From the NCBI GenBank assembly GCA_964016885.1, contig OZ024741.1, positions 31,496,001 to 31,560,000 on the forward strand: 64,000 nucleotides of DNA, given 5' to 3'. A program made the translations under genes and the position numbers. The DNA comes from Eledone cirrhosa (taxonomy: Eukaryota). Positions 1-57,693 of this stretch are shown in pieces. Every line of letters starts with the position of its first letter. Positions within the stretch are counted from its first letter, which is position 1. The notes beneath the pieces are model-generated. The model did no database searches. It was not told where the DNA came from and saw nothing but the letters and a program-made list of their open reading frames with translations.

Positions 1-1830
1 GTTGTGATGTGTTTATGCTTATAATTTGGTGCTACGTTATGTATAGGTGCGGTTGATTTACTAGAGATATTTCTGTGGTTGATCTTGCGTATGTGTGATT
101 CTATATTTGCTGTTGTCGAGTATGAGAGTTTTATAGTAAATCTATTGAGTATTTTGTGATATCTATGTGAGATAGGGAAGTGTTTATCTATTAGTTTAAA
201 GAATGTAGAGGGCAGTCTAGTTTTTATAGAGGAGTTGAAGATTGGGTTGAACCATAGGTTTTTTTCTTTGTCTGTTTCTTCTATTGTTTCTATGGTTTAC
301 GTTATTAGTGTTTTGACCGTTTACTCCAAGTGTTACGTGTCTAACCCTAGTTCTAGTCAAGTTATTTCTATTATAATGTGAGCGGTTGGTGTAGTAATTA
401 CTAGGATTGTTTACGTTGTCTTTATTCACTATATACTGCAGTTTATCTTTATGACCGGCCCTACGTAATGCTGCATTATAATAGACAGCATGCTCGTTAA
501 AGATTTCTAGGTTTGAGGATAAGCGGGATGTTCGGAGGGATATACTACGTGCTATGGATCTAATTATAGATTTGGGGGGGGGGGGTTTGAGTTGTAACTA
601 ATGTAGGCAAGATTTTCATTATTTTTGTGGAAAGGTTCTATTAATCCCGTATTTAGATTTAGAGTCACATCTAGAAAGTTTACCTTCTTATGGTTCAGTT
701 CGTAGGTAATACTTAGGCCTAGTTTTTTTAAGAATATTCTAATATTTTTTCTTAGTCCTTCCATGCTCTGGTTGTTTAGGTTCCTAGCTATAAGTAGCGT
801 GTCGTCCCTATAAATTCCTCCTTGGAGGTTATTGAATTCCTTATGTAGGTTGTGTGCTATGAATAGCCCCACGATATCTGTGATTTGCGCAGAATCGTTT
901 GATCCCATTGTTATATCGAAGCTATTTATCCTATCCTTTCTTACCCAGTAGCTATTTTCAAATTTTATGATAGTCCTTCTAGCCGCTATTATTATTTCAA
1001 TTTCATCATGGGTAAGATCAGAGTTATTTTGGGCAAATATAAGCGCCTTATCTAGGGTAGCTGGGGATATGGATGCATAGTAGTCGTCTATATCAAATTG
1101 TATGAAGTTACACGTCTCCCTATTTTGTATTTTATTGAACCATTTAATTGCCTCGTTAGTGTTGCCCCATAAATTGATTTCTAGTTTACCCTTTATTTGT
1201 GCGATTACCCTATCTAGAATGTTCTTGCTAATTTTACCTATGTCTGACTTGGATGGGCATATTAATCTAATAGTTTCAAAATTATTTTTGTGATCCTTCA
1301 GGTTAAATGTTGGGTTGCACGGGGTTAGCGGTTCGGTCCTATCGGGAATTCCGAGTTTATTAACTATCTTGAGGCCCTCCACGTTAATGCTGGTGAGTGT
1401 AGATTTATTTGTTTTTTTAATATTTTTTATGTAGTTCACGCTGGATAAAGCTATTGTATGTGTTAATGTCCATAGAGTATACGTTTGATGTTTTGTCTGC
1501 TTTTACTATGATACCGTTAGTGTCTTTTAGTTTTTTTAGTAGTGTATTTAAGTCATTTTGTAATTTGTTGTGATTTGTTCCTTTTTTAAATTTAGTTTCA
1601 CTTATCATGTTCATAAGGTCCAGCTCGAAGGCATCGAGTGCGGGGTTGTTTGGCGGGTTTTTGCAGGATTTAAACCCGTAATTCTCCTTAGAAAATTCCT
1701 TTGCGTTGGTATTCGGTCCCTTATCGAAATGGTAAGCTTCCCATCGGACCCTGCGGATGAAATCATTAGTCCGTCGTATCATAACTGGACTATACCTAAG
1801 TGGACTGCATTTAACTATTATTTGTTACCC
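1..1830 (-). mobile_element. Penelope-like retroelement (Hydra-like clade), frameshifted; 3' part runs off window start
   Basis: ORFs 1417..1782 and 564..1439 give N-terminus (FIRRVRW, KADKT) and RT motifs QFDIDDYY, ITMGS, GGIYRDD, VNFLDVTLNL; downstream thumb/linker region similar to the 38.4-39.7 kb ORF; 5' end abuts (TA)n. Confidence 0.85.
564..1439 (-). pseudogene. PLE reverse transcriptase core (frameshifted at both ends)
   Basis: RT motifs FDIDDYY and YRDD in translation; frame breaks in homopolymer runs near 1415 and 580. Confidence 0.85.
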
Positions 1831-1857
1831 CGTATATATATATATATATATATATAT

Positions 1858-4229: not shown

Positions 4230-4455
4230 ATCGGGCTCCCATTTGCCTTCAATATTCTAAATTTCATTTTTTTTTGTTGCTTTAATTTCCCCCCCTTTTT
4301 CTTTTCTTTCTTTTAGTTTTTATTATTTTTTTAATTATTTTTTATTATATGTCTCATTAGCTCTTTTTGATTACCAACTGTAAGGGGTACTCAATACTTC
4401 CCCTAGTCTGTCATGGCTTACGCATCTTTAAATTGAAGAATTATATATATATATA

Positions 4456-4800
4456 TCAATAATATTAATAAATGAAAGCTATCTTTATAAAACGATATTT
4501 ATTTTATTATATATATTTCAAGGGTACCAACATTTTGGTACGCTCTCATCAGATAAAATACAAAAGTTGGTTTACAGATAGTGACATATTCAGACAACAA
4601 TTTTTGCATTTTATCTGATGAGGGCGTACCAAAATGTTGGTACCCTTTAAATATATATAATAAAATAAATATGGTCTTGTAAAGATAGCTTCCATTTATT
4701 AATATTATTGAAATCCTACTCCAGAAGAAATCTGTTGAGTGCTACTAACCTGTTGTAAATTAAATTTGTTGAATAATCAACCAAATTAAATAACTCATTG

Positions 4801-4803
<3 letters not shown>
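4456..4803. mobile_element. Fold-back (inverted) PLE pseudo-LTR pair with one-sided tail, in (TA)n
   Basis: Arms ~4456-4565 and ~4600-4711 are reverse complements, each holds an HHR; ~90-nt tail only on the right; sequence related to the pLTR at 39658-39975. Confidence 0.85.
4501..4559 (-). ncRNA. Type I hammerhead ribozyme (intact core); mirror copy at ~4608-4666 (+) has GAAA>TAAA
   Basis: Minus strand: attttat CTGATGA gagcgtacc-aaaatgtt-ggtaccctt GAAA tatata TA ataaaat; 7-bp stem I, palindromic stem III. Confidence 0.85.
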
Positions 4804-4843
<40 letters not shown>

Positions 4844-5649: not shown

Positions 5650-5853
5650 AATTATTTCTACTATTGGCACAAGGCCAAGTACTTTATTTTATCGACCCCG
5701 ACTTTGACGCATAGAGTTACGGTCCTTGCCATTCTGAGTTCAAATCCCGCCGAGGTTAACTTTGCCTTTCATCCTTACGGGGTCGATAAAATAAAGTACC
5801 AGTAATGTACTGGGTATTTGCTGGCCTTGTGCCAAAAGTAGAGACAATTATTA
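5650..5853 (+). mobile_element. tRNA-derived SINE, 5'-truncated, preceded by an inverted copy of its own 3' part (5650-5700)
   Basis: B-box gagttcaaatccc, core tttgcctttcatccttacggggtcgataaaataaagtaccag, tail ggccttgtgccaaaagtaga; many copies in window. Confidence 0.85.
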
Positions 5854-8071: not shown

Positions 8072-8418
8072 GTGAGTTTTTTTTTACAAAGTGAAAAATA
8101 ACCGAGGTCTCCTACACGAGTGAAAGTATAAAGAAAAAAAGATGAAATCGAAAATGCAAATGGAGTCTTATTTAAAAAAATATATATATATTTATTTGGT
8201 TCCTTTACCGGTTTCGCAGTTCTTCTGCTTTTCAAAAGTAGAGTTGAGATGGAGGGTCTGTGGTTTTTCTCACATCTGAGAAAAATCACAGACCCTACAT
8301 CTCAATTCTACTTTTGAAAAGCAGAAGAATTGCGAAACCGGTAAGGCAACCAAATAAATATATATATTTTTTAAAAAATAAGACTCCAGTTGCATTTTCG
8401 ATTTCATCTTTTTTTCTT

Positions 8419-8731: not shown

Positions 8732-8872
8732 GGAAAAAATGAAACGAAATTTCATTTCCCACTCTTAGTACGGCTGTTACTTAAATATAAGTATGTACAC
8801 GTTCATACATATATGTATACAGACGTACAGTAGTATATATATATATATACATACATGCACACATATATATAT
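8726..8872 (+). repeat. Dispersed ~150-bp repeat, second copy at ~32911-33052
   Basis: ggaaaaaatgaaacgaaatttcattt...gtacagtagtat near-identical at both sites, both starting at (TA)n. Confidence 0.8.
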
Positions 8873-8906
8873 GTACGTATGGATTCACCGAACATTTATT
8901 ATAATA

Positions 8907-9046
8907 CTCGGTGTGTTTGTAAACAAACATCCCGTATTAAGCCGTAGTGTCCAGCAACCATCGTTGCTCGTTTGTTCAACACTGACAAAGGAACGCTGTA
9001 CTAGTTTCAAGCTTATTAGCTATCGTTTGTTTACAAACACACCGAG
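8907..9046. mobile_element. MITE with 22-bp terminal inverted repeats
   Basis: ctcggtgtgtttgtaaacaaac (8907-8928) and gtttgtttacaaacacaccgag (9025-9046); flanks TA and CA. Confidence 0.7.
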
Positions 9047-12000
9047 CATACGGGCCATCTTCCTGGACCCAGAAGGTAAGTTGGTGGTGCTGGACGTGAC
9101 CAGCGGAGACGGGCTAGCTTTCAGGCTAGTGGCCGTCTATGCCCCGACAGGAGCAGGGCGGCCTGATTTCTTCCGGCATCTGGAGACCTTTCTTGGAACG
9201 TCCTGCTCTTTAGTGTTAATGGGCGACTGGAACGGGATCTTAGATGCAGGCTGGGACTGTGTGGGATTAGCGGATAGGGGAGGCGGGTGCAAGAGCCTCA
9301 CCAACCTGCTCAGGCGTTTTGAACTGTCTGACCGGTACCGATTGGATTTCCCGAATGTGCCAATGTGGACTTGGACAAACCGCACAGGGTCATCCAGATC
9401 ATATCTAGATGGAGTATTTTGTAGGGAAATGGATAGGACTAGCATAGGCTGTCCACAATTCAAGATAGTCAGCTACACGGACCACAAATTTGTGATTTGT
9501 GTGCTTGACTTAGATAGGCTCATAGACGAGGACCCGGCTACTGGAAGCTAAACGCGTCCTTACCAGCGCGCAAGGCCTACAGAGACCGGATTAGCGAACT
9601 AGTTAAGCGGGCGTTGACGGGGGCAATCCTCGACAACAAGTGGTGGTTTGCTCTGAAAAGAGCGATTATAATAGAATCCATTAGCTTTAGTAAGACTTTA
9701 GAAAAATAGAGCAGAGGGAGAACTAGTTAGAAAATTAGACGAGGCGCTTAGCAAAGGCATCGCGACCGACGAACTTGCGGCGAAATTGGCCCTTGACCAA
9801 TTCTTCAATGCAAAGCACGAAGGCTGCGTTGTCAGAGCTAGGGTGCATGCTCTCAGACACGAGGGGACAAAAGCCGTTCAATGGGCTCGAGTGGCGGAGG
9901 CGCCTCGTGGCAACAAATCCACGATCCGGTCTTTGGTGGACCACGACGGGTGCATGCTACGCGATCCCGGGAAAATGTGTGAAGCTCTTCAGCGACACTT
10001 CGCTCAGCTGTTAGGGGGCAGCGTCGGGCCGGGTCGAGGGATGGACTTTAGTGTCTACCTCGACGGACTGCCGCGGCTCTCGGCCACTGAGGAGGAGTGT
10101 TGTGAAAAGCCGATAACAGCCGCTGAAGTACGGGAAGCAATGACTGGCAGCACAAGGGGTGAATCGCCTGGTTTGGATGGTCTGCCCTATGAACTTTACG
10201 TACAGATGCCAGACTTGTTCGGAGGCCTCTACTGCAACTGGCAACAGAATGGGAGAATTCCCAGCTCTGTGGGCCGAGGAGCTGTGGCGCTGCTGAGAAA
10301 GGATCCGAAGAAGTGGGATAACATAGATCATTTCAGGCCCATAACTCTGCTAAACGCAGAGTTCAAGATTTGGGTCAAGGTGCTAGCAAAGAGGTTGGCG
10401 CGTGTCGTTGGTGGTCTGGTTGGAGAGGCACAGACATGCGCCTTTCCCGACAGATCCATCCACGTCAACCTCCACCTCATGCGATACATCGTATAGAGAG
10501 TAGCTAGGGAACCAGGCACGGGTGGGTCCTTGTCCAGTTTAGATCAGTCAAAATATTTCGATAGGGTCGACCATCGTTACCTAGCGGCAGTCCTGAGGGC
10601 GGCTGGCTTTGGGCCCGTCTTCAGAGGCTGGATCGCTGCCATGCACAGCGACATCTGCTCTGTGGTGAGAGTGAACGGTCACCTTTCGGAACCGTTCAAC
10701 ATCATGCGCTCGGTCCGCCAAGTATGTCCCCTCTCGTCCCTCTTGTACGTATTGACTCTCGAGCCATTACTGCACAAACTGGAGACGTTGAAGGGGATCC
10801 CGCGCGAACTAGGATGCGGAGGATCCGTGTCAGCATATGCGGACGATGTCACCGTAGTGGTGTCGAACGCCAAACACATCGAGGCGATCGGCACTACACT
10901 AAGAGAATACGAAGCGGTGACAGGTGCAATCATCAACCAGGAAAAGTCAGTGGGCCAGCAGCTCGGCACCTGGAAAGGCAGGTCCATGCCGTCCAACAGC
11001 GTCGTCGGGCGCTGGAGGGACAGACCGGTTAAATTGCTAGGAGTCTGGTTCGGTCCGGACCTCCAGATGGACAAAAACTGGGACGAGGTGACGAGCAGGG
11101 TGGCTTGTCTCACCCAGAAATGGGCGGAGAGGAAAGTATCCCTGAAAGGTCGACCGTAGTACCTTGTCCTAAGCCCCGCCTGACTGCGCTGGAGCCTTTG
11201 CTCTTTCGCTTTTTGTAGAAGGGACGGGCTCCGATGGTCAGGCGGTCCATCTGCTGTCAACACCCGCTACGTGGAGGGCTGGGCATGCCGTGGCTGATGA
11301 TGCGCAGACACGCGCTCAGGCTACGACATCTCTACCTCTTCCTCGACGGTGATCAGGTGTGGTCGCTGTTTGCTAGACGCGTCTTTCTCCAGCTCGTCTC
11401 CTTGACGGAGCTGCAGTCTTGGATCAAGCGAAGACCGAGAGGGAGCGCTTGGAGACTGGAATGTCTTCAGGCGCTCACAGCCCTCGACCAATCGGGCAAT
11501 GTGATTTGTGGAAACTCCACCTTGGCGTTCAATAAAGGATTAGTGGAGGGGAAGATCGACGACGTACTTGGGGAAACTCTAGTCGTCGACGAAAATCAAC
11601 TAGCCAATGTCTTCGGAAGAACTTTCGGGCCGGGGCCTATGGACAACTTCCAGAAATCTCTGGCCTTGCAGTGCTACCGAGGAGCTTTGCCAGTTCGGGA
11701 TAAACTCTACAGGCATGGAGGTGCCGTCAGCCGGGCATGTCCGAGATGTGCGCAGGGCGACGAAACCGTCCTGCAAGCACTGGTCCAGTGTCCGAGCATT
11801 GCTGACTTGTGGGTTTATGTCGAACACCTGCTGTCGTGTATAGGACGGATCCAGTTATCAGCTGAGTCCATCGTGAGGATTTGCTCGCCCTCTTCCTTTA
11901 GCCGGGAAGGGCAGGCAGTTTTTATCTGTCTGGTGGCCATGGCGAAAGAGATAGTATGGTGGACACGTTTGAAAGGGCTGAAGACGAGCACTTACCTCTT

Positions 12001-12378
12001 CGGTGATGCCCTGATTAACTTTTTCAAATTTAATTTGGAAAGGAAAATCAGGTTAGAGAGGAAGTGCTCTCTTCCCAGCATTTTGTTGAAAGATGTGTGA
12101 ATGGGCCTTCTCTGAGTATGTGTCTGTAAATTAAAGGTGGAAAACTGGGAGAGGGCACCTGCCCTGGTGGTCAGAGTCACTGTGGCCTTTTAATGGGCTT
12201 TCTCCACAAATGTCCCTCGGAAGTCTCCCCCTATTGGGGAATTTTTCATTGTTATTTTTGTTACATCCTCTGTTTTTGTTTTTTTACACGCAGAAATGCC
12301 CATTTGTACCATCCTGTATTGTCCTGTACTCTCCTTAATGTCTACTTTATGTAAACCCTTGTGGTTAATAAAGAAAGC
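9047..12378 (+). mobile_element. Tx1-clade LINE, 5'-truncated, degenerate ORF2 (APE + RT + C-terminal Zn finger); ATT-associated family
   Basis: GDWN, TDH, SPGLDG, RPITLLN, YADD, CPRC motifs across ORFs 8793..12100; ends aataaagaaagc then (ATT)5. Confidence 0.92.
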
Positions 12379-20158: not shown

Positions 20159-20580
20159 ATATTGTTATACTTTGGGAGAGTCATGTTGCCAATAAGAAGC
20201 ACACGCACCAGTCGCTTTCACTCCAATTCATTATAAATTCAATTTATAAATTTAAGAATTTATAAATTTCCGGTTGTTTGGTTGGTTCCACAACCGGACG
20301 GTTGTTCATATATTGTCAAAGTTCTTTCGTCACACATTCTGTGACCTCTTCAGTGAAGAGGTGAAGAGGTCACAGAATGTGTGACGAAAGAACTTTGACA
20401 ATATATGAACAACCGTCCGGTTGTGGAACCAACCAATCGGAAATTTATAAATTCTTAAATTTATGAATTTAATTTATAATAAATTGGAGTGAAAGCAACT
20501 GCTGCATGTGTTTCTTATTGGCAACATGACCCTCCCAAAGTATAACAATATTGGTTTCAACACACGCTTTCAGATAAAGA
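20159..20580. mobile_element. Fold-back PLE pLTR pair centred on the HHR core, ~30-nt tail on right, in (TA)n
   Basis: Arms 20159-20352 and 20362-20551; motif CTGAAGA g-gtcac-agaatgt-gtgac GAAA gaac TT tga. Confidence 0.85.
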
Positions 20581-20592
20581 ATATATATATAT

Positions 20593-20677
20593 GGTTCCTA
20601 TTACCCACTCTACTACCTCAAGTATTGAGTACTTTGGTGCGTTATGGTCCACCTGGTTCCTTACCACATTTCCTTCG

Positions 20678-20738
<61 letters not shown>

Positions 20739-20925: not shown

Positions 20926-21346
20926 ATATAAGATCAAAAGATGGTTAAAGGAGTTCCATGTATTTTATTATGCGCATTTCAAAAACAAACATCATCATGC
21001 AATAATATTTGTGTTTTCATCAGATAAAACAGGAGAACATGATATGAAGGCTAAAAAACACTTGTGGATAGTGCAGTTTTAAATCAACATATGATATGTT
21101 GATTTAAAACTGCACTATCCACAAGTGTTTTTTAGCCTTCATATCATGTTCTCCTGTTTTATCTGATGAAAACACAAATATTATTGCATGATGATGTTTG
21201 TTTTTGAAATGCTCATAATAAAATACATGGAACTCCTTTAACCATCTTTTGATCTTATATTATGTATACTCCAGTCCTACAAACTGTAGAGTGCTTCTTA
21301 TTCGATATCTGCATTGCTTTATTGTACTACAATAAAACTTACCTCC

Positions 21347-33816: not shown

Positions 33817-36474
33817 AAGGAAAAAAGATGAAATCGAAAATGCAACTGGAGTCTTTTATATACAAAATATATATATTTATTTGGCTCCTTTCGCAGTTCT
33901 TCTGCTTTTCAAAAGTAGAGTTGAGATGGAGGGTCTCTGGTTTTTCTCACATCTGGTTGGTCTTTGAATGTTACTTGTTTTATATGGAAAAAAAGTGGCT
34001 CGAAATGCCAGGTTTTTAGAGGAGTTATTTGATTGGTTGGGGAATAAGAATAATAAATTTCGCGCCAGTTTGCGTTACAAAGTTCTTCAAACAGGTGGGG
34101 GGGGGCGGGTTCAGGTTGTTTTTTCATATATGAAAGTTTGGTTGGTTGATGCAGTCACGTGAATAAGCACATCAGCTTTCGCGCCTGTTTGTTTGAATTT
34201 CTTTTTACTTAAAAAAAGTGGCTCACGAAGGCTTTTTTAAAAATGTTATTTGATTGGTTATAAATGAAATTAAAATAGTCACGTGAACAAGTTCTTTAAA
34301 TTTCGCGCCCGTATTTGGGAATTTATTTTGTAGTCTTTTAGAGAATTTTGTGCCAAACAAATGCTAATGGTCAAGAAAAATGGAATGGGGAGAATTGTTC
34401 TGGTTCAGTGAATATGGTTCGCTGGGGTGTCAGAATTCCGACTTTCTATTGAAATAAAGAAAGTAGAGATATGTATGTTTATTTGTGTAGTTGTGTGTGT
34501 GTGTGTGTATGTGTGTGTGTGTAGGAAGATGATTCTATTAGTAGAAATGGGGGAGGGAGTTGTGTGTGTGTATTGGTTTTATGTGTGTGTATGTGTGTGT
34601 GGGAGTATGGTTAGCATGTTAAGATGGAGAGAGTATATATATTTTGTGTTTGTATGTGTTATGTGTGTGTGGGAGTTTGGTTAGCATGTTAAGATGGAGA
34701 GAATATTTATATTTTGTGTGTGCGCGTGTGTGTGTGTGTAGGAAAATGATTCCGTTAGTACAAATGGGGGAGGGAGTTATGTATGTGTGGGGTATGTGGT
34801 TAGCATGTTAAGGTGTTAGAGTACTAACGTATGTTAAGGTTTATTTAAATCTGTTGTTTTTTTTTCTAAAGTAGAAGGTGTTATGTGTGTGTGTATGTAT
34901 GTGTCTGTTTGGATGGTTAGCATGTTATGGTGTTGACATAATGTATATTAAACTATATTTAATGCTGGTCTATGTTTTTGAATAAACATATTTTCCTTAT
35001 TTATTCGTATTTGTTCTGTTGTATTGTCAGCGCAAATGTAAAATGGGAAGACTTGGAATTTGGGTGTCTTATTACTTGCGCATATGTCTAGATGTGCACT
35101 TAGTGGTATCTGTCTCGTGGTTGGATCTCGTAATTGCTGGCGATGAACTGTCATTCTGTTTCTGTGTGTGAGTTTAGTTTGTCCTATATAATATTCATTG
35201 TCCTATATAATCTTCATTGCATCCTTTACATTTAATGGCATAAATTAGATTGTTTGATGAGCAAGTGAAGTGATTTTTTACAGCAAAATTTTGCCCTGAT
35301 TAAAATGTATACGTCTTGCCTTCAATGACGTGAGTGCAGGTTCCACAATTAGAGCGACCCCATTTTTTGACAGTTGCTTGTGGGTTTGTGGTAGGTAATT
35401 TTGCATTGGTGAGTAATGTTTTTAGGTATTTCGGTTGTCTTTTGCTTTTGATTATTTTGTGTGTTTCAGGGGCTTTTTTCATTCCTGGGTCTTGTTTCAA
35501 TAGGGGGATGTTCTTGTGAATAATGTTGTAAGCTTCCGCATTTCTTGGGTTGTGTGTTGAGATATATGATAGAATATTGGACGTACCTTGAATTTGTTTC
35601 TGTTTTCGTAATTCATCAATACCTATTGCTTTAGCCATTTCTATTCCATTATTTATCAGTAATGGTGGATACTGTCATTCGAGTAGAATTTCCTTTAATT
35701 CTTGAAGTCTTTTATTTCACGTTTCATAATTGGAGACAATTGTGCAAATTCTTCTTGTTAGGTTAAACGGAATGTTCGTCTTCGTGTGCTTTGGGTGGTT
35801 GGAGGTGAATAGCAGGTATTGTTTGGAATCTGTTGGTTTGTAGTGTATGTCAGTTTCAATATTTGTGTCTTTTTTTAAGATTACGATGTCCAGAAATGGG
35901 AGTTAATCTTGGCTGTATTCCATTGTGAATTGGATGTGGTTATTGATACCGTTAATAACATTTTTGAAATCATTTAGTTGGTCGAGTGTGTGGGACCAAA
36001 GAATGAGATAATAGCGTTTCCAAATCTCTGATAAATATTTGTGGAAGTTCAATCCGTATTTTGATTTGGACTGTTCATATATCTGGACTTCCAAGTATGC
36101 CATGACTAAGTTGGCATATGTTGGAGCGGCTTTTGTACCCATCACAGTTCCCGATATTTGCTTGTAAGTACAGCCATCGAAATAAAAAAAGTTGTTCTGT
36201 AAAATAAATTTTAATCCCTCGGTGATGAATCTTTTTTCTATTGTGTCAGGTATCTCATTGGGATATTTCTCTAGCCATAATCCTATTGATTCTAGTCCGT
36301 ATTGGTGTTGGATCGTTATGTAGAGATTCACTACATCGAAAGACACAATAATATGTCGTTGTTGACATGTCTGGGGAGGTGGTTTAAGAGGTCCAGATCG
36401 TCTCTTACAAGGCTTGGTATATGTGTTTGAGAATTGGTTTTAGTAGTATGTCTATAAAGTTGCTTAGTCTGTGT
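33817..36474 (-). mobile_element. 5'-truncated Neptune-like PLE (RT, Cys-rich linker, GIY-YIG, 3'UTR, pLTR), degenerate
   Basis: SFDVVNLY, GTVMGTKAAPTYANL, FLD, CGTC linker, NLIYAIKC..YIGQT; both ends at (TA)n; pLTR equals 8127-8272 but lacks stem III. Confidence 0.88.
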
Positions 36475-38098
36475 TATATATATATATATATATATACGAT
36501 ATTAATAAATGGAAACTATATTTATAAAACCATATTTATTTCATTATATATATTTCAAGGATACCAAGTTACATTATGGTATGCCTTCATCAGACAAAAT
36601 ACAATATATAACAGTTTTATAAATAGACATTGACGTTCCCCTTTAAAAATTGACCGTTGTTTTTGGAGGCCATCAGGATAGTGATTTGTTTATTTAGTAA
36701 GTCATAGTGTTAAGAGTAAGTAAAAAGATGGAGAGAGAGAGAGAGAAACGTGGAGAAAAGAAAGGGAGAGATAGATAAAGAAAAAGAAGAAAGCAAAAAG
36801 AAAAGAGAACAGAGGAAAAATAACGGGGAGATATCAAACCATCAGACCGAGAAAAAATCCAGAGAGAGATATATAGAGATAGAGAGAGGGGGTAGAGAAC
36901 GAAAACCTTAAGTTATGTCATATTAAGTTGAGTTAACAATTGGGATGAAAAGCATAAATAAAATTAGAAATATTAAAATTCATGAATGGAATATAGATAT
37001 ATAATATGAGAAATTACACATTGTTTAATTATGATTAGATATTTAGTTTAAAATTGAGATCAATATATTAAAAATTGGAATTTAAACATTATAAAATATA
37101 TATATTGCTAGAGAGATTATCTATCGCATATTACATACGCATAGGCAAAGGTACATAAATATATATATATATACACACTCACTCAGAAAATACACATTAT
37201 ATCTACTCCCGCACATAATATATATATACAAAGCATAAGTGATTTTTTATTTATTGCCATACATTCCCTGTGTTATTAATTAAAAATTAAAAGTTTTTAG
37301 TATATATATATAAATATATAGGATTAACTTTCATACATTTATGGCTGTTAAGTTATGCATATCTGCAATAAAAAACTGCATGTGTAAGCCTGTACATTCA
37401 CATCCATAATTCTTAGCTATACATGAATAGATATGTGTGTGCATCTTCAATTGGTATACACGCGTCACTCATGCATATATACAGACAGACATATAATCAT
37501 AAAAAAGCATATAACACATATATATGTATGTCAACACACACATATAGATACATTAGCCTTATATAGATATACGTATACATCAACATATAACATAGTACAA
37601 TTGAGTATATAAAATACAAAAGGATTATATTTTGGAAATATAATTATATCAATATAACTTAAAAAAACAAACGAATTCTACAAATATCAAAATACTAAAA
37701 TATCCCAAAATATTATAGAATATTTTAAGTTAAAATAATATCTTTAATATATTTAGTATAGAAATTAATCTTACGTATATTTTAATCAAGATATTGAAAG
37801 GACAAACTTTTGAAAATTATGAGAAGCTATCAGAATAAAAAATAAATCTAATAAAAATTATGAGAAGCTATCAGAATAAAAACAAATCTAATAAAAACAA
37901 ATCTAATAAAAATAAAAAATAAAATGAATCTAATAAAAAAATAAATAAAATGAATCTAATAAAAAATAAATCTAATAAAAAATAAAATATTATATCAATA
38001 TAACTTAAAAAACAAGGATTCTACAGATATCAAAATATTAAAAAGTTTAAAGATAACAAATTTTTTTTAAATTTTAAAAAAATTTTAAAAACTTTAAA

Positions 38099-38143
<45 letters not shown>

Positions 38144-38390
38144 AACTCTTAAAATATTATAGAATATTTTAAGCTAAAATAATATGTTTAGTATAGAAAT
38201 TTATCTTACGTATATTTTATTCAAGATATTGAAAGGATAAACTTTTCTAGAATAGTTTATTATATTTATAATTATATTTATGAAGAAACTTTATACTTGG
38301 GTACTTAACCAAAGAAAATGAAAAAGGTGATGGAATCTAATGATTTATCGACAGGTTACATATATTAACTAAATTACTTAATTAATTAAA

Positions 38391-39657
38391 CTACATTTTA
38401 AATTTATATTTATATTTAAACGTTGAGTTCAATCTATGTCTGCAGCAACTGAATAAATTATTCCTTAAATTAAGGGAATTTTGGTCTTTAATATAAAAAA
38501 ATACTTCCTCTATACAAAGGTCACAATATTCTGAAGAGGAATTAAAAGGAGTAGCTTTTGAAATAATATTCCAAATCAGCGAATATTCAACATTATCTCG
38601 CTTTAGGTGCAATAATAGGCTAGATAGCGAAGTTGAAGATTTTTTGTTTGGATCTGTAAAATCATTTTTATGATTATTGAAGCGGGATTTAAATTCTGTA
38701 GAGGTAAAACCGACATAGTTAAATGAATTTAAATTAGTTTTAACATTACAATTATAAACTACATTTTTAGCTAAGCAGTTGTTATTTAACGGACAGTTGG
38801 ATTTATTTCTACAGTTACAGTTATTCGATTGAATATTGCTTGGGTTATTATTGGTATTTTGGTTAGGTTTTAAATTTCTATTATTAATTCTATTAATATT
38901 TTGCGCTAAATTTTTGGTGGAAGAGTAGGTTAATTTTATAGTATGTCTATTAAAAATTGAGTAATATTTATGTGTTCTAGGGAATCGTTTGTCAAGAGCT
39001 TTAAAGAATAGTTTAGCAATAGGGGTTTTAATATTTAGTGAGAAAGGGGGAGCGAACCATAATATATTCCTAGTTCTATTTCTTTTTCGGTTTTCGGAGT
39101 TATAGTAATATTTTCTATTATGGTTGTTGAAATTGTTACCATAATTAAAGTTGTTATTATTTTGGTTATTTTGTATATTATTATTACTATCGATGTATTT
39201 AATTTTATTTCTATACCCAGCTCTACCTAACGCTTCATTGTAATAATGCGCTTTTTCATCAAATATATTCTTATTAGATGAAATTCTTGAAATTCGTTCT
39301 TGAACAGAGTTCACTATAGTATTTTTAACGGATCTGGGGTGATTAGAGTTAAAATTGACATAATTTAAGTTCTCATTTAGTTTGTGAAATGGATAATGAA
39401 GACATGTGTTGAGATTTAGTGTTACATCTAGAAAATTAACTATTTTATGGTTATTCTCTATTTCTACTTTTAGATTAAGGTAATTAAAAAATTGTATAAT
39501 TTGTTTTCTTTTTCTATTTAGTTCACAGCTATTATTTTCTATAAGTAAAAGCATGTCGTCACGATATAAGCCTCCGGTTACATCTGGTATTTTTCTATGT
39601 AGAGAATTAATTATAAATAGGCTCACCTGAGCTGAGTCTGAAGATCCCATAGTTATG
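38391..39657 (-). CDS. PLE polyprotein C-terminal part: RT palm/thumb + GIY-YIG endonuclease (5'-truncated, open frame)
   Basis: ITMGS, GGLYRDD, VNFLDVTL, CNCRNKSNCPL, NVVYNC..YVGFT..R...H, CDLC..E, CRH. Confidence 0.88.
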
Positions 39658-39781
39658 TTACTTACTATTAACACTATGACTTACTAAAGTAAACAAATCA
39701 CTATCCTGGTGGCCTCCAAAAACAACGGTCAATTTTTAAAGGGGTACGTCAATGTCTATTTATAACACTGTTATATATTGT

Positions 39782-39844
39782 ATTTTGTCTGATGAAGGCA
39801 TACCATAATGTAACTTGGTATCCTTGAAATATATATAATGAAAT
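39782..39844 (+). ncRNA. Type I hammerhead ribozyme (intact); mirror copy 36538-36600 (-)
   Basis: attttgt CTGATGA aggcatacca...tggtatcctt GAAA tatata TA atgaaat. Confidence 0.85.
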
Positions 39845-39972
39845 AAATATGGTTTTATAAATATAGTTTCCATTTATTAATATCGTATATCTACTCCAAA
39901 TATTTGTCGAGTGCTTTATATCAGTTATAAAAATATTTGCTTGTTGTATCCCAACAATTTAAACAAAACTTT

Positions 39973-40006
<34 letters not shown>

Positions 40007-40336: not shown

Positions 40337-40536
40337 TAACGAAGGAAGTGTGGTAAAGAATCAGATGGACCATAACGAACCAGAGTACTCAATACTTAGG
40401 GCAGTAGAGTGGGTAATAGGGAAATGTTCAAGACCCCGACGGCAGAGCTCAAGCAGTTTCGACGGCTATTTCTGGACATTCCAGAAATAGCTGTCGAAAT
40501 AGGCTTGAGCTCTGCTGTCGGAGCCTTGAACATTTT

Positions 40537-40541
<5 letters not shown>
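40337..40541. mobile_element. Family G fold-back, tail on left, in (TA)n
   Basis: Arms 40416-40476 and 40480-40541; tail 40337-40415. Confidence 0.82.
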
Positions 40542-44215: not shown

Positions 44216-44373
44216 TGTTATTATTACTAATAAAAATAACGAAGATATTGAAATGTAAGCTCCAAAATATTTAATTATGTCTACTATTTCAGGTAAAATA
44301 TCCTTTTATCAACAATAGGATTAATATATCTAACAGAGTTATAATTTCCCCCTCTAGTTTTACTGACATCTTC

Positions 44374-44683
44374 GGAATGGGGTACGTTACCAGGAATGGG
44401 GTACGTTACCAGGAATGGGGTACGTTACTAGGAATGGGGTAGGTTACCAGGAATGGGGTAGGTTACCAGGAATGGGCTACGTTACCAGGAATGGTGTACG
44501 TTACCAAGAATGGGGTACATTACCAGGAATGGGGTACGTTGCCAAGAATGGGGTACGTTACCAGGAATGAGGTACGTTACCAGTAATGGGGTACGTTACT
44601 AGGAATGGGGTAGGTTACCAGGAATGGGGTACGTTACCAGGGATGGGGGTACGTTACCAGGAATGGGGTACGTTACTAGGAAT
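44374..44683. repeat. 19-bp minisatellite (GGAATGGGGTACGTTACCA) x ~16
   Basis: Contiguous units, period 19, no spacers. Confidence 0.95.
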
Positions 44684-46479
44684 ATCAAGATAATTAAGCT
44701 ATTTCTCAGTTAATATTTCGATATCTTAGTAAATTTTTCTACTGAAATGAAATATTGCCGTAGCCTTCTGTAGCTAACTGTATCCTGTGTGTGAACTCCT
44801 AATGGAATCATAGGCCACTGCATTGACATACAGCGTTTCTTGGGACATTTAAAAACTTGGCAGAGCCCATTCCTTTCCAGGAGTAAATACAGAGTGGTAG
44901 AGATCAGTGAGAAAAGGATATAGAGGAAGAATAGATCCCAGTACTAGACTGGTTCTTTATTTATCAACCTTGAAATGGTGCAAGGCAAAGTAGACCCCGG
45001 TGGGATTTGAACTCAGAGACCAGAGAGCCGAAACGAATACCGCAAAGCATTCTATCCGACGATCTAACGACGACGACAATTTGCCGCCTATCCTATATAT
45101 TACAGAATGATTAAAAAATGGCTACAACACTCTTCTAAATATCGATATTTTCTCAATCTGCGTTCAAGAAATATTCTTACCAACGATGGTTGATATAATT
45201 ATGAAGTGACATTATTCACTAATTTAATATTTAATAAAAAAAAAAGTGTCTGTGTTCTATCAGTTTATAGTTTGGGTTCCATCAGTTTATATATACAAAC
45301 TTATCCAGGAAGTATTGATTGTCACTTGGTGCTTTTCAGAGACAGCTTATGTTTATATATTTATACAATATCATCTCTACTTTTTGATTTAGTAGAGTTT
45401 TTATATTGTCCAACGAATATTATAGCTCTCTGTGCTGGGAATAACTAATACGTACATACACACACACACATATATATATTAATATATATGTATATTATGT
45501 ATGCGTGTGTGTATGCGTGTTTGTACGCGTGTTTTTATGTATGTGTGCATGTATGTGTACACATACATACATATTTTGACAATGTAATAAATTGTTTCTT
45601 GTTGTTCGTTGCGCAGTTTGTATTTATTGTCTCTTACTTGAATGGTTATATATTTAGTGCAAAGTTTCCTATGGGTAATATCTAGTCTGGTGCAACTATC
45701 ATAAAACAGTCCGTCTTAGATTTTAAGACTACGGTTGATAAACAGCATTTGGCTCTTTTACATTCTCTTCAGTTATTCACGTTAGATACTATGTAGATAT
45801 TCGAATTGTCAGTTGTATTAAAAATGTGGAATGTAGTAACAGGAACGAATGATAATGGCTCTCGTTTCACGTTCATGAGTTTATGGATTCAATCCGACTG
45901 AGTGTCATCTTGGGGGATGGTCATTTACCATAGCTTCGTATAGATCCAAGTATTGTGAGGGAAATTATGTAGACGGAAACTGTTTTGAAGCTCATTCGAT
46001 GGACTGTACGTATAATCCAAAGGGCCAGCCTTGTCATATATTGTGTTACGCCAAATATTGTTGCAAAGTTCCTTAAAGGTAAACATATCTGTAGAATGCT
46101 CAGCCCCTTTCCACGTTAATTTGATGAACAAATAGAACCCACATCGCAGAAAATGACTGACATCTATTTAGCTTGGAATTTAAATTGACAACTCTAATAA
46201 CATTTTATTGCTTTTTTTCAGCCATTTTATGATATTGTCCTCCGTTACTTATATATTATCAACCACCTTTAACTTGTCTCCTCTAGTTAATTGTTCTTGT
46301 GTTTTCTAATAATTTTATAAAATGAGGAGGATGCAGGCTTGTGAGGGCAAGACGTTCTGCGTTTGGTCTTACAGCGTACTTTCTTGAGCAAGTGTCATTT
46401 ACCAGAGATTTGGAGTCCTTATGCTAGCAGGTTGAAAGTTGCAAAATCCCTTTTCTACGGTTACAGGAAGTAGCCAAGT

Positions 46480-48200: not shown

Positions 48201-48468
48201 ACGTCACCCATAACATAACGAAAGTCGATAGTTGGTGATCGATGATCGATTTTAAGTTGTGGTTCTCTTCGAATCATGAAATAGCCGTTGGGAATAGGAA
48301 CTTTTTCCATCTGAAGTATGCATTTAATATAGTATATATTTAATACAGAAATGGCTTCTACAGGATTTCTACAGGACTAGAATTGTTTCATTCGGGAGTA
48401 TTTATACTCTGCTATGTATTGAGTACCTTACTTACTGTGGCTACCCCCGATTGAACCCGGGATAAACT

Positions 48469-48532
<64 letters not shown>

Positions 48533-48780
48533 AGCTTTCGCTGTATTTTGACTAAAGACATTTTAGCCAGATAGTGGGGTTTAGAACCCTATAAGAAATG
48601 GAAAAAGATGAGTATCGTCTGTGTCTGTGGGGCTGAGAACGGGGAGTACTCAATACACGGTGAGATGCAGATTGGATATAGAGATATGTAAAATCTTGAC
48701 CGCGCCGCCAAGCAGTTTCGGCTTGTGAGCATGTGTATGTATGAATAAATCCCGAATCAACCACAAATTACAAGTCTAAT
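48200..48780. mobile_element. Two eroded PLE-type termini facing a shared (TA)n(GA)n tract
   Basis: Tail hairpin motif at 48406-48427 (+) and 48645-48673 (-); GAAA-stem III-TC half motif near 48695-48722 (-). Confidence 0.45.
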
Positions 48781-49570: not shown

Positions 49571-49782
49571 AAAAAGTATGACCTCGACGGCAGAGCTCAA
49601 GCCGTTTCGACGGCTATTTCTGGACTGCTATTTCGACGGCTATTTCCAGGAATAGCCGTCGAAACGGCTTGAGCTCTGCCGTCGGGGTCATACGTTTTGC
49701 TATTTGCCACTCTACTACCCTAAGTAATGAGTACTCTGGTGCGCTATGGTCCATCTGGTTCTTTACCACAATTCCTTTGTTA
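49566..49782. mobile_element. Family G fold-back, tail on right, in (TA)n
   Basis: Arms 49566-49624 and 49645-49703, 20-nt self-templated filler, tail to 49782. Confidence 0.82.
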
Positions 49783-49951: not shown

Positions 49952-50346
49952 CTGGGATGGACACGCGCGTGAAACTTGCTGAGTAAGTTCTGTTTAAGTT
50001 TATATAGAAATTCCTGTTTGTAAACTTTAATTTTTGTACCATTTTGTAGAGGGACTGCCAGGTCAAATTTTGATCTGGTCAGTCTCTCAAAATATTCTAC
50101 GCCTTTAGGCGAAATAGTTAAACAAAAAGTTTTTTTTGTTGAAAAGTTAACATTTTTTAAGATGGCTGAAGCTTCTTCACCAAAATTCGAAGGAGGAAAG
50201 GGGAAGATAAACTTACAGCTTCCCCCTGTCACTGTCACAGTAGCAGAGGTCAAAGACAAAGGTCGGCCAGAGGAAGGATTTTCTCCACCTGCTGACCGAC
50301 AACTTGACGTTGCCATGGCAACAAACCAAACAACCAGCGGCACCAG

Positions 50347-50377
<31 letters not shown>

Positions 50378-53300
50378 ACGGACGAAAACAACACCAATAA
50401 CAACAACAACAACAAGACCAATAACTGTGATAACAACAACAATGATAACAACAACACCACCAACTACAACAGCAACATAAACAAGGAAAAGGTCTCCCTC
50501 GCCCAGACGGCAAGGAAAATCCTCGACTATCTGCCAGTAGATATAACCAAAGCGAAGGAGCTACTGGCAGATGCCAAAAAATATATAGTGTACGGGGAAA
50601 ATGGTGCATTTTCGACCCCCCCCCCCCCTCCCGGAACTAAAAAGCCAGAGGCTCCTAAACACTGTCATGTTTAGGAAAATCTCAAATAAAAGCAAAAAAA
50701 CCAGCTCAACCATCACAGAGTGAGATATGGCTGGTTTTAAAAGACGTCATTCAGAAGGATAGACTCTACGGGAGTCTATCCATTCTCATGAAGGACAGGG
50801 ACACAGCAGTGAAACTGTGCATCAAACCAATTACATCCACCGCATACATCTTCTACCCTCGTACATGGGTAGAAGGACACAAAAAATAAAAATCCACACC
50901 ACCCTGCCGATTATGGACATATGGTGGGTTTTGACAGGTTTCCTGAACCTGGATGATGACACGCTGGTGTCCATGGGAAAGGCATCGGGTGACGCGTTCA
51001 GTGGAACGAGCCTCGAACTTGTAGTTCAAATGAAGCCCGAAAGGGTCGCCCAGATCCCTGAACGCGTCATACTGGATGATCAAACTTTCATTAACATTAC
51101 CGTTGAGGGTAGGCGGCCCTCGTGTTACCTCTGTGGAACCAGAGGTCACCTGAGGGCTGTCTGTCCCCAACTTAATAAGAAAACACCAATCCTGCCTACA
51201 CCACCAACAACTGCACAACCAACACAACCACCACAACCACCACTACAAAAACAACAACCACAGCTCAAACCAAAACAAAACAATGTCCAACCCATCCCCC
51301 CCACTAAAAAAAAAACAATTCTCAAAACACCCGCACCGCAAACACCACCCCAAAATATACCCCTCGCCTCCAACGCGGAAGATGACCCTCGTTCGTCGTC
51401 AGACGAGGAGGAGCACTTCCACACAATCAAAAGAAAAAAAAGAAAACACACCTCAGACACACAAATGAAAACAACTCTCCCCAAAACATAACACTGGCAC
51501 CAACACAAAAGAGCACACAACAACAGCAAACAAAAAAACAGCACACAAAAACAAAAACATGCATACACATACATAAACACAAGAAACAAAAAACTGTTAA
51601 ACATTGTGTACAACAAAAATTTAATAAAAACCCAAGGGCCTAACTTCACCCAGGCAGGGGATTTCCCCCCACCTCAACATGATTAAGGCCCCAAAGGACA
51701 CTTATAAAACTCTAAAAGACAACTTCCACAAACCACCACCCCACCCAACAACCCATCCCCCAACCTCATGGAAATTGTGCAGCCCGATACCCGGGACGCA
51801 GAGAGGTAAGTGCCTTTTCTCTTCACCACCAACATGGCTATGCTAAGAGTAGGCTATTTAAATGCGCGTGGCCTGGGCTCAACTTGGAAGCAAGCAATGC
51901 TTCTAAATGACCTCAGGTCACAACGTATAGATGTGATGGTTATTTGCGAGGCCCGGATCAGCAACGTGCGACAGCTGGCCCCCACCTTTGATGACTTTGA
52001 GATGCACGCAACTCTCTGTCAGGCCGGAGGTGGGTGTGGGGTTGTCGTTCTGCTGCAAAAACATCTGGGTCTCGCAACACAGACGGTACATTTGGACCCG
52101 GAGGGTCGACTAGTGGTCCTGGACCTTGGCAGTGGTGAAGGCGGAGCGTTTAGGTTGGTAGCCGCCTACGGCCTTTTCGGGTCAATGCGGCCGGACTTCT
52201 TCCATCGTCTGGAGATTTTTCTAGGGACATCCCGCTCCTTGCTATTAGTGGGGGACTGGAATGGTATCCTACGTAGGGGTCTGTCCCGATAGAGAGGGGT
52301 GTAATAGCCTCAAATGGGTTAATCGGTCGATTTGACCTGGCCGATAGATATCGACTAGATTTTCCGACTGTGCCAACTTGGACTTGGGCAAATCGCAGCG
52401 GATCATCTAGGTCGTACCTAGATAGGGTCTTAGTTAGAAATAAGGATAAGGACTTTTTAAGTTGTCCAAAATTTAGCATGGTTGGCTATTCAGACCACAA
52501 GTTAGTGAGCTGCATGGACAACCTTGACAGAACGCATAGACAGGGACCCGGTTACTGGAAGCTCAACTTGTCCTTACCGGCAAGTAAGGCTTACAGGAAC
52601 GGGATTAGCACTTTAGTTAAGGAGCGGTTGACGGGCGCCATCGTCAACAGCAGGTGGTGGGGATCTCTCAAAAGAGAGATTAGAGTAGTCTCTATAGAAT
52701 TTAGTAAGGAGTTAGCCTCTAAAAGAAATAGCAAGGAAAGGGAGCTGGTAGATAGTGTAGAAGAGGCAATTAGAAGCGGCGACGTGGCCAGAGTGCTAGT
52801 GTCGAGAACGGCCCTGGGCCAGTTCTTCGACGCGAAACACGAAGGCTGCATCGTCCGAAGCAAAATACGTGCTCTGGGAAACGAGGGGACCAAAGCTGTT
52901 AGCTGGGTCCGCGTGACAGAAGCCAAATGAGGGAGCAGATCCACTATCCGGTCTTTGCGAGACCAGGATGGACGTGTGATCCTTGAACCTAAGCAGATGT
53001 GCGAGGCTTTTCAAAAGAACTTTTCCGGATTGTTCGGAAGGGGCGAAGAGCCGGTTGGGGATGTGGACTTCGGTCCATACCTCGACGGCCTGTTGCGTCT
53101 CTCGGACAGGGAGGCTAAGTCCTGCGAGGAGCCGATTTCAGCCGCTGAGATAGAGGACATGCTGAGCCAATGCGGCAAAAGCAAATCCCCGGGTCTCGAT
53201 GGTCTTCCATACGAACTGTATCTAGCTATGCCGGATTGTTCCCCGATCTCCTCGAGGCGGTCCACTGCAACTGGCAACAGAACGGGAGAATTCCCTGTGC

Positions 53301-55515
53301 TGTGACCAAGGGCGGAATCACGCTAGTGAGGAAGGACGAGAACAAGGGGGATGATATAAATAATTTCAGGCCCATAACTCTGCTAAATACAGAGTTACAG
53401 ATGTTGGCCAAGGTGCTAACAAAGAGGTTGGCGCTTGTCGTGGGTAACCTGGTGGGAGATGCGCAGACATGTGCTATCCGGTTCAGGTCCATCCACGACA
53501 ACCTCCACCTCATGCGATACATCATAGAGAGGGTTGGAAACTAACCTGGCTTTGGTGGGGCCCTGATCAACTTGGATCAATCTAAGGCGTTCGATAGGGT
53601 CGACCATGGTTACCTGGATGCGGTGCTAACGGCGGCAGGCTTCGGACCCGTTTTCAGGGGCTGGATCAATGCCATGCACAGCAGCCGCATCTGCTCTAGA
53701 GTCAAGGTGAACGGCTACCTCTCGGAGCCGTTCGAAATCGCGCGGTCCATCCGACAAGGGTGCCCTCTCTCCGCCCTTCTGTATGTAATGACTCTAGAGC
53801 CACTGCTGCGGAAGTTGGAGTTGTTGCAGGGTATCCCGTTGGAACCGAGATTGCGGAAAGCGGTGTCGGCCTCCGCCGACGACGTAACAGTAATGGTGTC
53901 AAGGGCCTCGGAAACCGGGGCGATCGGCACCTTACTGGAGGAGTACGAAAGGTTTACAGGGGCTAAGCTGAACCGGGACAAGTCGATCGGTCTGCAACTC
54001 GGCACGTGGAGGAAAGATCGATGCCCTCCGATGGCGTCGTCGGGCGCTGGACGGAGGGCCCGGTGAAGTTGCTCGGGGTCTGGTTCGGACCAGACCTTCA
54101 GGTGGAGAAGAACTGGGGTGAGGTAACGAACAGGGTGTTTGCACTGACCCAGAAGTGGGCCGAGTGCAAACTGTCCCTGAAAGGTCGGGCGGAGTTGGCG
54201 AACACTTATATAGCGTCCGTCATCTACTACCGCCTGACCGTCCTGCCTTGCCTAAGGGAAATGCTCGACAAAATGGAACGCGCACTCTTCTAATTCCTCT
54301 GGAAGAAGCGGGCTCCTATGGTGAAGAGATCCATCTGCTGTCAACACCCTTCAAAAGTAGGGCTGGGATGCCGTGGCTAATGATGCGTAAACACGAATTA
54401 AGTCTACGGCACCTCCAGGTATTCCTCACCGGTCAACCGGTGTGGGCCCCTTTTGTGAGGCGGGCCTTTCCCAGACTCGTCTCACTCACCGAACTGCAAT
54501 CCTGGGTCAAGCAAAGACCGAGAAAACTGGGCGCCTGGCACACCGAGTGTGCCCAGGCGCTCACGGCTCTCTGGCAGGCGGACCCGGCTGTCAGTGGAGA
54601 ATCCACCTCGTAATTCTATAGAGGGCCGGTGGTTAGCAGGTGCGACGACGCCCTCGGAGAAGCCCTAGGCATGGAGGAAGACGAACTAGCCAACCTGTTC
54701 AGTAGGACATTCAGCCCGGGACCCATGGATATCTTCCAGAAGTCCCTGGCCTGGCAGTGCTACCGAGGGGCTCTGCCCGTTCGAGAAAGGCTCTACAGAC
54801 ACGGGCGCCCGGGTAGGGTCCCCTCGAAAAAGATCTGTCCCAGATGCGTGTGCGACGAGGAAACCGTTACACACGCATTGGTACACTGCTCGGGCATTGC
54901 CGATCTGTGGGGCTATGTCGAACAACTGCTGTCAAGCGTGGGACCCATCCGGTTGACCACCGAGTCTATTGTAACGATCAAGCCGCCTCCCCTCTTCAAA
55001 AACGAAGGAGAGGCGGTGTTTCTGTGCGTAATAGCCTTGGCGAAAGAGGTTGTATGGTGGACGCCTCTGAAAGGACTGAGGTCAGACGCCTTTCTCTCTG
55101 GCCAACAACTGGTCCGTTTCTTCCGATATCATTTCGGAAGAAGGATCAGGATGGAGAGAGAGGTGCTGCACCCCAGTCGTTTTTATGAAAGATGGGTGAA
55201 AGTGGCGAGAATGGCCCGTGTGAATGGGCCTTCACTCTACATCAGACTATAGGTGAGGAAGATGAAAGACCAAAGGAGTACCCGCTCTCTGTGCTCCTGA
55301 GGAGAAGGGTTGCACACTTTTTTCGGGGGTGTGTACGACCCCCCAAGACGCCTCCTCCCTATTAAGGATTTTGTTATAAAATTTATTTTGTTATATTTTA
55401 TTTTATTTTTATATATTGTTATTGCCTCCTCCATATTGAGGACGCCTTTGAATGTAAACTCCCCCCTTTGTACTTGTCCCACTTTTGATGCCCTGGTGGC
55501 AAATAAAAAGAAAGT
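49951..55515 (+). mobile_element. Full-length Tx1-clade LINE, copy 1 (family A), multiple frameshifts
   Basis: ORF1 50162-51809 with CYLCGTRGHLRAVC knuckle; ORF2 51834-55252 with APE, RT and CPRC; ends aataaaaagaaagt-(TATC)n. Confidence 0.93.
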
Positions 55516-57652: not shown

Positions 57653-57693
57653 GTGCACCTTTCGTCTTTTTTCTCCAACTTTTCTTCACCAAC

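Follow-up and report, generated by a model that had tools for sequence, protein, structure and literature searches.

The 5' untranslated region (UTR) of Hydra-clade Penelope-like elements (PLEs) holds a small bulged hairpin twice, and insertions of these elements end a few bases before the one copy or the other. Given this position, the hairpins likely direct the copying enzyme to its starting points, and from the sequence comparisons reported here we consider it fairly probable that they serve as an RNA anchor by which the element's own protein sets the starts of the reverse transcriptase (RT). The stretch of DNA under study, called the window below, comprises 64,000 nucleotides of Eledone cirrhosa (contig OZ024741.1), and its insertions consist of inverted pLTR arms within (TA)n tracts with a one-sided tail. 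In the sense direction the pLTR is followed by a UA microsite and hairpin 1, then by a spacer, a second UA microsite and hairpin 2, and the ATG comes about 25 nt later. The short arm of an insertion stops at a UA microsite (site 1) that is mostly 2-9 nt upstream of hairpin 1, and the long arm ends likewise before hairpin 2 (site 2), so that the tail is the interval between the two microsites, i.e. the hairpin spacing (59-172 nt). The second hairpin, which marks the long-arm end, goes beyond what the original prediction contained.

Hairpins in the window

A recurring bulged hairpin had been predicted at eight places in the window; all eight were located, at coordinates exact or at most 1 nt off, and the ACTC of the lead example begins at 4718. 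This hairpin 1 (4718-4743, plus strand), from a Hydra-clade family, has a 4-bp outer stem, a UU bulge and a 4-bp inner stem. Its insertion has inverted pLTR arms at 4456-4711 (257 nt, 88%), of which the left end, 4456, is a site-1 end against (TA)n. The tail (4712-4802, plus strand) runs from site 1 to the long-arm end, which is the same in most of 30 copies, and is followed by (TA)n at 4803-4840. The short arm contains a hammerhead-type core (CUGAUGA...GAAA) at 4516-4552 on the minus strand, and in the plus-strand copy at 4615-4651 the GAAA is altered. The core at 4516-4552 identifies the hairpin-carrying strand as the sense strand, and in general the hairpin is assigned to the element's sense because it shares a strand with the hammerhead core and the ORF. 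Other copies of this family are joined to a Hydra-type ORF C-terminus; no full-length copy was present among 20 loci, all of which are 5'-truncated. Close by, at 4386-4410 (minus strand), a decayed neighbouring element keeps the 3' half of the motif without a matching 5' arm.

Family F, which has a 784-aa Hydra ORF elsewhere in the genome, carries hairpin 1 at 20607-20633 (plus strand), at 40384-40410 (minus strand, with arms at 40419-40538) and at 49709-49735 (plus strand, with arms at 49571-49698). The first of these belongs to a one-armed copy, 20592-20680, that ends at site 2. A ninth hairpin of the same form (20763-20737, minus strand), again hairpin 1 of family F, is exceptional: the short arm runs to 20881 (site 1) and the long arm halts just 3' of the hairpin. 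A stop at this position is a rare third class of end, also represented by L406. Family 5 has hairpin 1 at 21268-21295 (plus strand), arms at 20926-21260 and a tail reaching about 21349 (site 2).

The two-armed insertion of family A occupies 36489-39980. Its 3.2-kb arm bears the ORF and ends at site 1 (36497); its 0.2-kb inverted arm has the tail and ends at site 2, with a hammerhead-type core in its pLTR (39789-39829, plus strand) and hairpin 1 at 39893-39915 (plus strand). The ORF (38391-39680, minus strand) is 5'-truncated and of the Hydra clade, comprising the C-terminal half of the RT, a CxCx5C linker and a GIY-YIG domain with CxxC and CxH. An interrupted Neptune-type ORF (35300-36439, minus strand) adjoins the insertion at 36489. 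A site-2 end of family C lies at 1802-1836 (plus strand), where a short inverted tail piece is joined to a Hydra ORF (217-1824, minus strand); in full-length copies of this family hairpin 2 begins 3 nt past the last shared base. The remaining hairpins are that at 48406-48427 (plus strand), which has a family-wide G.U pair, and that at 48645-48673 (minus strand), which has one outer mismatch in this copy. No ORF could be tied to either family (20 loci for that of 48406), and no second arm was found for either in the window.

In two-armed insertions the short arm had been expected to stop 0-8 nt before the hairpin. This proved right for the short arms of the window, which end 2-6 nt before the ACTC; the copy at 20607 is one-armed and 5'-truncated.

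The window also contains non-LTR retrotransposon copies (8769-12100, 50024-55252, 55949-61109 and 61604-64000), among them an ORF at 58656-61109 with a Pfam RVT_1 match and a weak zf-RVT match, a short interspersed repeat family in six copies (e.g. 5702-5813), and a 19-nt tandem array at 44318-44716.

Form and covariation of the hairpin

A descriptor consisting of a 4-bp outer stem, a 2-nt 3' bulge and an inner stem of at least 3 bp matched 130 times in 864 kb, against 31-51 times in five dinucleotide shuffles. Seven other bulge geometries gave 18-47 matches each, and the 2/0 geometry, with 96 matches, is the opposite-strand mirror of the same hairpins. The 864 kb are made up of the window, 400 kb adjoining it and four 100-kb blocks, to which 200 kb were later added (1,064 kb); the sampled blocks were picked without regard to hairpins, and three of them lie close to copies of the 4718 family.

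Tailed inverted insertions were then gathered blind to the hairpin, giving 154 events in 47 tail clusters. A rule that takes no account of the inner stem finds the outer stem in 22 of the 47 clusters, including cl3 and cl18, which probably match by chance. At the three inner positions of these 22, 58 of 66 are paired, compared with 35.4 +/- 3.3 after shuffling (0 of 10,000 shuffles reach 58), and the pairs fall in register only with a 2-nt bulge. The claim that the inner stem covaries amid differing surroundings therefore held in a larger alignment. In a covariation count over 21 hairpins 98.4% of positions are paired and there are 29 double changes against 9.3 (0 of 500 shuffles), the shuffle taking no account of relatedness. 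Chance as the cause of the hairpins is rejected, both matches and pairing exceeding the shuffles. Pair types in the inner stem vary freely (C-G, U-A, A-U, G-C and G.U), and covariation is also seen in the outer stem (ACTC/GAGT, GCTC/GAGC, GTTC/GAAC). The outer stem and the 3' flank of the hairpin are conserved in sequence, and the loop between the arms measures 2 to 57 nt.

Folding energies are weak, at -2.6 to -6.5 kcal/mol with sense-strand z-scores between -0.2 and -1.7. None of these scores is significant and there is no preference for the sense strand, the antisense being more stable in 13 of 19 cases, which counts against an RNA anchor. Wobble pairs provide modest evidence in favour of the sense strand: among family-majority pairs, five are valid G.U on that strand and one is A.C, at a loop closure (a sixth G.U case was dropped as an artefact of a family with a 1-nt bulge).

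Elements that carry the hairpin

The families had originally been described as unrelated PLE families; wherever an ORF could be tied, they appear from their sequences to belong to one clade, Hydra. The marks of this clade are taken from the available part of Craig 2021 (PMC8557442), and the window ORFs 38391-39680 and 217-1824 both have them. In Hydra-type ORFs DKT replaces DKG and an RW[RK] motif is present. Both 38391-39680 and L111 have the CxCX5C linker and CxxC and CxH around a conserved E and N, with no CCHH; by eye, the 742-aa ORF of L111 carries a C-terminal GIY-YIG endonuclease after the RT in one reading frame. A Pfam search of the window's PLE ORF returned no match. The insertion target of the Hydra clade is here (TA)n. 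Between RT and linker, 38391-39680 (minus strand) and L111 have an asparagine-rich stretch that resembles inserts described for rotifer Penelope elements in the accessible part of PMC3846280.

Hairpin-bearing tails go with Hydra-type ORFs, and tails without the hairpin go with other ORF types (fam4, fam32, fam10 and fam3). From their motifs we take fam4 and fam32 to be Neptune-type, fam10 to be Poseidon-like and fam3 to be of another type. The covariance model, applied to 20 Neptune-type loci of which 8 reached their own pLTR end, made one match, on a nested Hydra tail. In the window, the palindrome at 8131-8418 has a tail without the hairpin and belongs to a Neptune-type PLE; that at 20162-20548 (fam3) has a shorter tail without the motif and is elsewhere tied to another PLE type. 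Clades such as that of fam3 may have duplicated signals of their own.

Among the six new Hydra consensi of Craig 2021 (PMC8557442, in the part available), four have the motif by eye. It is clean in Hydra-2_Amil (coral) and in Hydra-1_Ajap and Hydra-2_Ajap (sea cucumber), Hydra-1_Ajap having two copies ahead of the ATG; in Hydra-1_Crog (crustacean) it is imperfect and stands at both ends. By eye, none was seen in the consensi Hydra-1_Obim and Hydra-1_Amil, the latter of which stops before the tail.

A canonical hammerhead core lies upstream of hairpin 1 in 2 of 10 reference elements; in the other 8 it is absent, though both hairpins persist. Family F retains only the GAAA half of the core. Many metagenome loci (among the best 80 of 168) have it, and an Rfam scan of the window gave no match, for the hammerhead or otherwise, at or above the gathering threshold.

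Some Hydra families are young and have intact ORFs. That with the 784-aa ORF also occurs in four-copy tandem arrays (e.g. G000:C1:437200456-437211327), and an 832-aa family has dozens of near-identical copies; to judge by these features, both are probably active.

The second hairpin and the 5' UTR

Full-length 5' ends were obtained by a protein search that is blind to the hairpin, which yielded the 10 references. Two complete hairpins precede the ATG in 9 of them. The exception is family 29 (L205 and relatives), in which hairpin 1 has a 1-nt bulge and hairpin 2 is degenerate; this family nonetheless keeps both insertion ends, a point against an RNA anchor. In L131, L147 and L160 the loop of hairpin 1 is about 55 nt and the tail about 170 nt.

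A metagenome set of 79 loci, RT relatives at 36-48% identity from the best 80 of 168, includes 23 families with an ORF start, each of which shows one or more complete hairpins within 150 nt upstream of the ATG. By a strict rule two hairpins are present in 16 of these 23 families (from the best 80 of 168) and one complete hairpin in the other 7, in 6 of which the second 3' word is in place and its 5' arm is cut off or imperfect. The same rule was satisfied by 1 of 293 control ORF windows. The tally of 39 sense and 0 antisense hairpins in the metagenome is a product of the strand-specific rule and is not evidence. Within the best 80 of 168, hairpin 1 covaries (39 of 48 paired against 28.9 shuffled, 0 of 10,000), and the inner pairs of hairpin 2, at 29 of 48, equal the shuffles, which again speaks against an RNA anchor. 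Hairpin 2 usually has one pair above the bulge (C-G in the metagenome).

From the start of hairpin 2 to the ATG there are 40-46 nt in 16 of 16 metagenome families (best 80 of 168) and 37-43 nt in 7 of 9 references. In families F and 5 the distance between hairpin 2 and the ATG is 87 and 73 nt, respectively, with the end offset kept. The fixed distance hints at a second role. It is also what one would expect if the hairpins mainly controlled translation or a promoter, for instance as binding sites for autoregulation, with some other cause behind the nearby ends; an internal promoter reported at the corresponding position of D. virilis Penelope points the same way. We regard this as most improbable, both on account of families F and 5 and because the ends track both hairpins within a few nucleotides across spacings and ignore other TA blocks, as described below.

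Where insertion ends fall

The prediction that junctions are placed relative to the hairpin rather than at random was borne out. Mapped on the 10 references, 162 of the 167 (TA)n-flanked ends in 1,064 kb fall at the two sites, 73 at site 1 (-14 to +1 of hairpin 1) and 89 at site 2 (-14 to +3 of hairpin 2). With a narrower window of -12 to -1 the count is 130 of 143 ends in 864 kb; a further 22 ends without a TA flank are unplaced. The modal end offsets stay within 2-7 nt while the hairpin spacing varies from 68 to 172 nt. In the metagenome 10 of 14 ends fit the two sites (best 80 of 168), a lower proportion that weighs against an RNA anchor.

The UA microsite is itself conserved, 6-8 nt upstream of the hairpin. 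Within 12 nt upstream it is found at 30 of 38 metagenome hairpins, and farther upstream at 9 of 38 (best 80 of 168). A mere preference for TA microsites is rejected: the 23 TA microsite blocks beside hairpins took 140 ends, and 93 other blocks took just 2. As a separate observation, 5'-truncated copies often start at TA microhomology against (TA)n, at points scattered along the UTR and not at the two sites.

That the ends lie in TA microsites, which are themselves like targets of the endonuclease (EN), and that the sequence of the outer stem and of the 3' flank is conserved, would also suit a reading at the DNA level. The GIY-YIG EN would recognise the hairpins in a single-stranded or tandem intermediate, cut at the upstream UA/TA microsite and trim longer cDNAs. 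The available part of Craig 2021 (PMC8557442) ascribes tails to EN-mediated resolution, and according to PMC11167929 recognition by the D. virilis EN depended on the tail. Evidence against such cutting comes from the wobble pairs, whose excess of sense-strand G.U over A.C (5 against 1) disfavours the cDNA strand, from the loops of 2-57 nt between the arms, which disfavour a double-stranded site, and from the 5' ends of copies, which are not concentrated at the two sites. We consider trimming by the EN unlikely.

One site per end

Among 51 two-armed (outward-facing) insertions, 45 combine site 1 with site 2, none has site 1 at both ends, 2 have site 2 at both and 4 have one end off site. The two pairs with site 2 twice, 1-4 kb apart, are possibly separate insertions. 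At targeted loci 27 of 28 pairs are site 1 with site 2. If each end chose independently about half of the pairs should be mixed, and the observed 45 of 47 has a probability of about 5e-12.

This rule bears on the possibility that the hairpins are signals for cutting the RNA or forming its 3' end immediately upstream, in which case the templates would already stop at sites 1 and 2 and would be primed at their 3' ends in the manner of R2 and LINEs. Separately cut RNAs would pair at random, with about half of the insertions mixed; the motif falls short of the size of known ribozymes and has no Rfam match; and uncut RNA is the substrate in the Poseidon-clade assay described in the available part of PMC11167929. 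On the other side, in the accessible part of the consensus data, Hydra-1_Ajap begins 2 nt and Hydra-1_Crog 6 nt before a hairpin, and with the hammerhead core missing from 8 of 10 references another processing signal could be needed. On balance such processing seems distinctly improbable.

Arm lengths were compared in 72 two-armed insertions. The site-1 arm is longer in 15, the site-2 arm in 9, and in 48 the arms are similar. Since either arm may be the longer, neither always copies the other, and both appear to be copied from RNA in a coordinated way. The 48 insertions with similar arms, many of them near-perfect palindromes, could instead be explained if one cDNA from site 2 folded back and was copied outward until hairpin 1 stopped synthesis, which would account directly for the pairing of site 1 with site 2 and resembles both the boundary-element analogy proposed originally and a self-priming idea in the accessible part of PMC3846280. 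A fold-back copy cannot exceed its template, so the 15 insertions with a longer site-1 arm, several of them longer by kilobases and 36489-39980 included, contradict fold-back as a general mechanism, which could be saved only if synthesis switched back to the RNA template wherever the site-1 arm is long. Fold-back also offers no account of why hairpin 2 stands in the same position relative to the other end. We judge it very unlikely.

A model for insertion

We return to the hairpins as an RNA anchor. A read-through RNA containing the ORF, the pLTR and both hairpins would be held at each of the hairpins, probably by a pair of protein subunits. The endonuclease would cut both strands of a (TA)n tract, each cut 3' end would pair with a UAU or UAUA microsite 2-9 nt 5' of a hairpin, and each paired end would then prime cDNA synthesis from the one common RNA. 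The two cDNAs would run inward, stop and be joined head to head. The site-2 cDNA would copy hairpin 1 and the spacer, giving the one-sided tail, and the site-1 cDNA would not. The arrangement of the hairpins, their duplication and the pairing of one site with each end are observed in the genome; binding of the RT, its dimerization and priming are the parts of the scheme that we infer. The proposal of a cis element for internal initiation on a (TA)n primer stands to this extent: the element is conserved, covaries and lies beside a UA microsite at a fixed short distance 3' of the end, and it may bind the RT.

In a stronger form of the model, each unit would be a miniature telomerase-like RNA module, present twice, in which the hairpin docks the RT beside a UA template of 2-4 nt. 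A dimer on both modules of one RNA would prime both strands of the break, and the UA might be copied repeatedly, so that the elements lengthen or make their flanking (TA)n. We hold this to be quite doubtful. No true empty target site, which would test for pre-existing (TA)n, was present among the 72 insertions.

Comparison with known systems

The PLE RT is the sister of the telomerase RT. In telomerase RNA the template-boundary element stands in the path of the RT, on the 5' side of the template, and brings copying to a halt. In both cases a short RNA helix would keep a constant distance to a short template that a related RT uses with a simple-repeat primer. The analogy with a boundary element, which had been proposed originally, does not hold in its geometry: the hairpin lies on the 3' side of the inferred start, so that an RT starting there has it behind and not in front, and copies made from site 2 include hairpin 1.

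Hepadnaviral epsilon is a bulged stem-loop in the virus's own RNA that is regarded as the docking site of the RT and whose bulge is the template for protein priming. Here, too, a bulged hairpin in the element's own RNA would serve an internal start and might dock the RT, but the ends lie mostly 2-9 nt outside the hairpin, on its 5' side, and the primer is likely target DNA. In twin priming of L1 both target strands prime cDNA from one RNA, leaving an inverted junction. L1 begins its first cDNA at the poly(A) end and its second at variable positions, whereas both starts considered here would be internal and fixed by structure.

The closest precedent is PAc, a Poseidon-clade element of Anolis, for which the available part of PMC11167929 reports internal RT initiation in vitro at two sites bounding the tail. 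PAc cuts and extends both DNA strands and needs RNA 3' of the start, and a dimer is predicted (PMC11167929, same part). The likeness lies in an AT-rich target and in two internal sites whose interval is the tail, seen here as genomic ends and not as cDNA starts. PAc starts in an AC-rich stem-loop inside the ORF, whereas the ends mapped here coincide with UA microsites of the 5' UTR; its tail measures 30-40 nt in one family, whereas here tails are 59-172 nt and each start would precede a copy of the bulged hairpin. In the accessible part of PMC11167929 neither a conserved or duplicated motif nor a one-site-per-end rule is reported. Two further points from that part count against an RNA anchor, namely that the start sites did not differ between strands in vitro and that the template, by eye, has no copy of the present motif.

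For the Hydra clade itself, the available part of Craig 2021 (PMC8557442) gives the same protein marks and (TA)n targets, together with a hammerhead in the pLTR, whose core is present here in 2 of 10 references; in a term search of that text neither 'hairpin' nor 'stem-loop' occurs. We found no description of the hairpin, its duplication or the one-site-per-end rule in the open literature, including the accessible parts of PMC11167929, PMC8557442, PMC3846280, PMC2377424, PMC4209133 and PMC13282606, a scope outside which fall subscription papers, Repbase notes and theses. The clade-wide duplicated hairpin is thus apparently undescribed, and two-site internal initiation has already been published for another clade.

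Significance

Two features of PLEs have long seemed odd, the one-sided tail and the inverted arms joined head to head, and the motif gives a concrete model for both. The duplicated hairpin predicts both ends of an insertion within a few bases, one site per end, and provides a minimal RNA of about 100 nt for testing the model. For repeat annotation it provides an exact boundary and a clade marker, and it would be a handle for loading a cargo RNA on such an enzyme.
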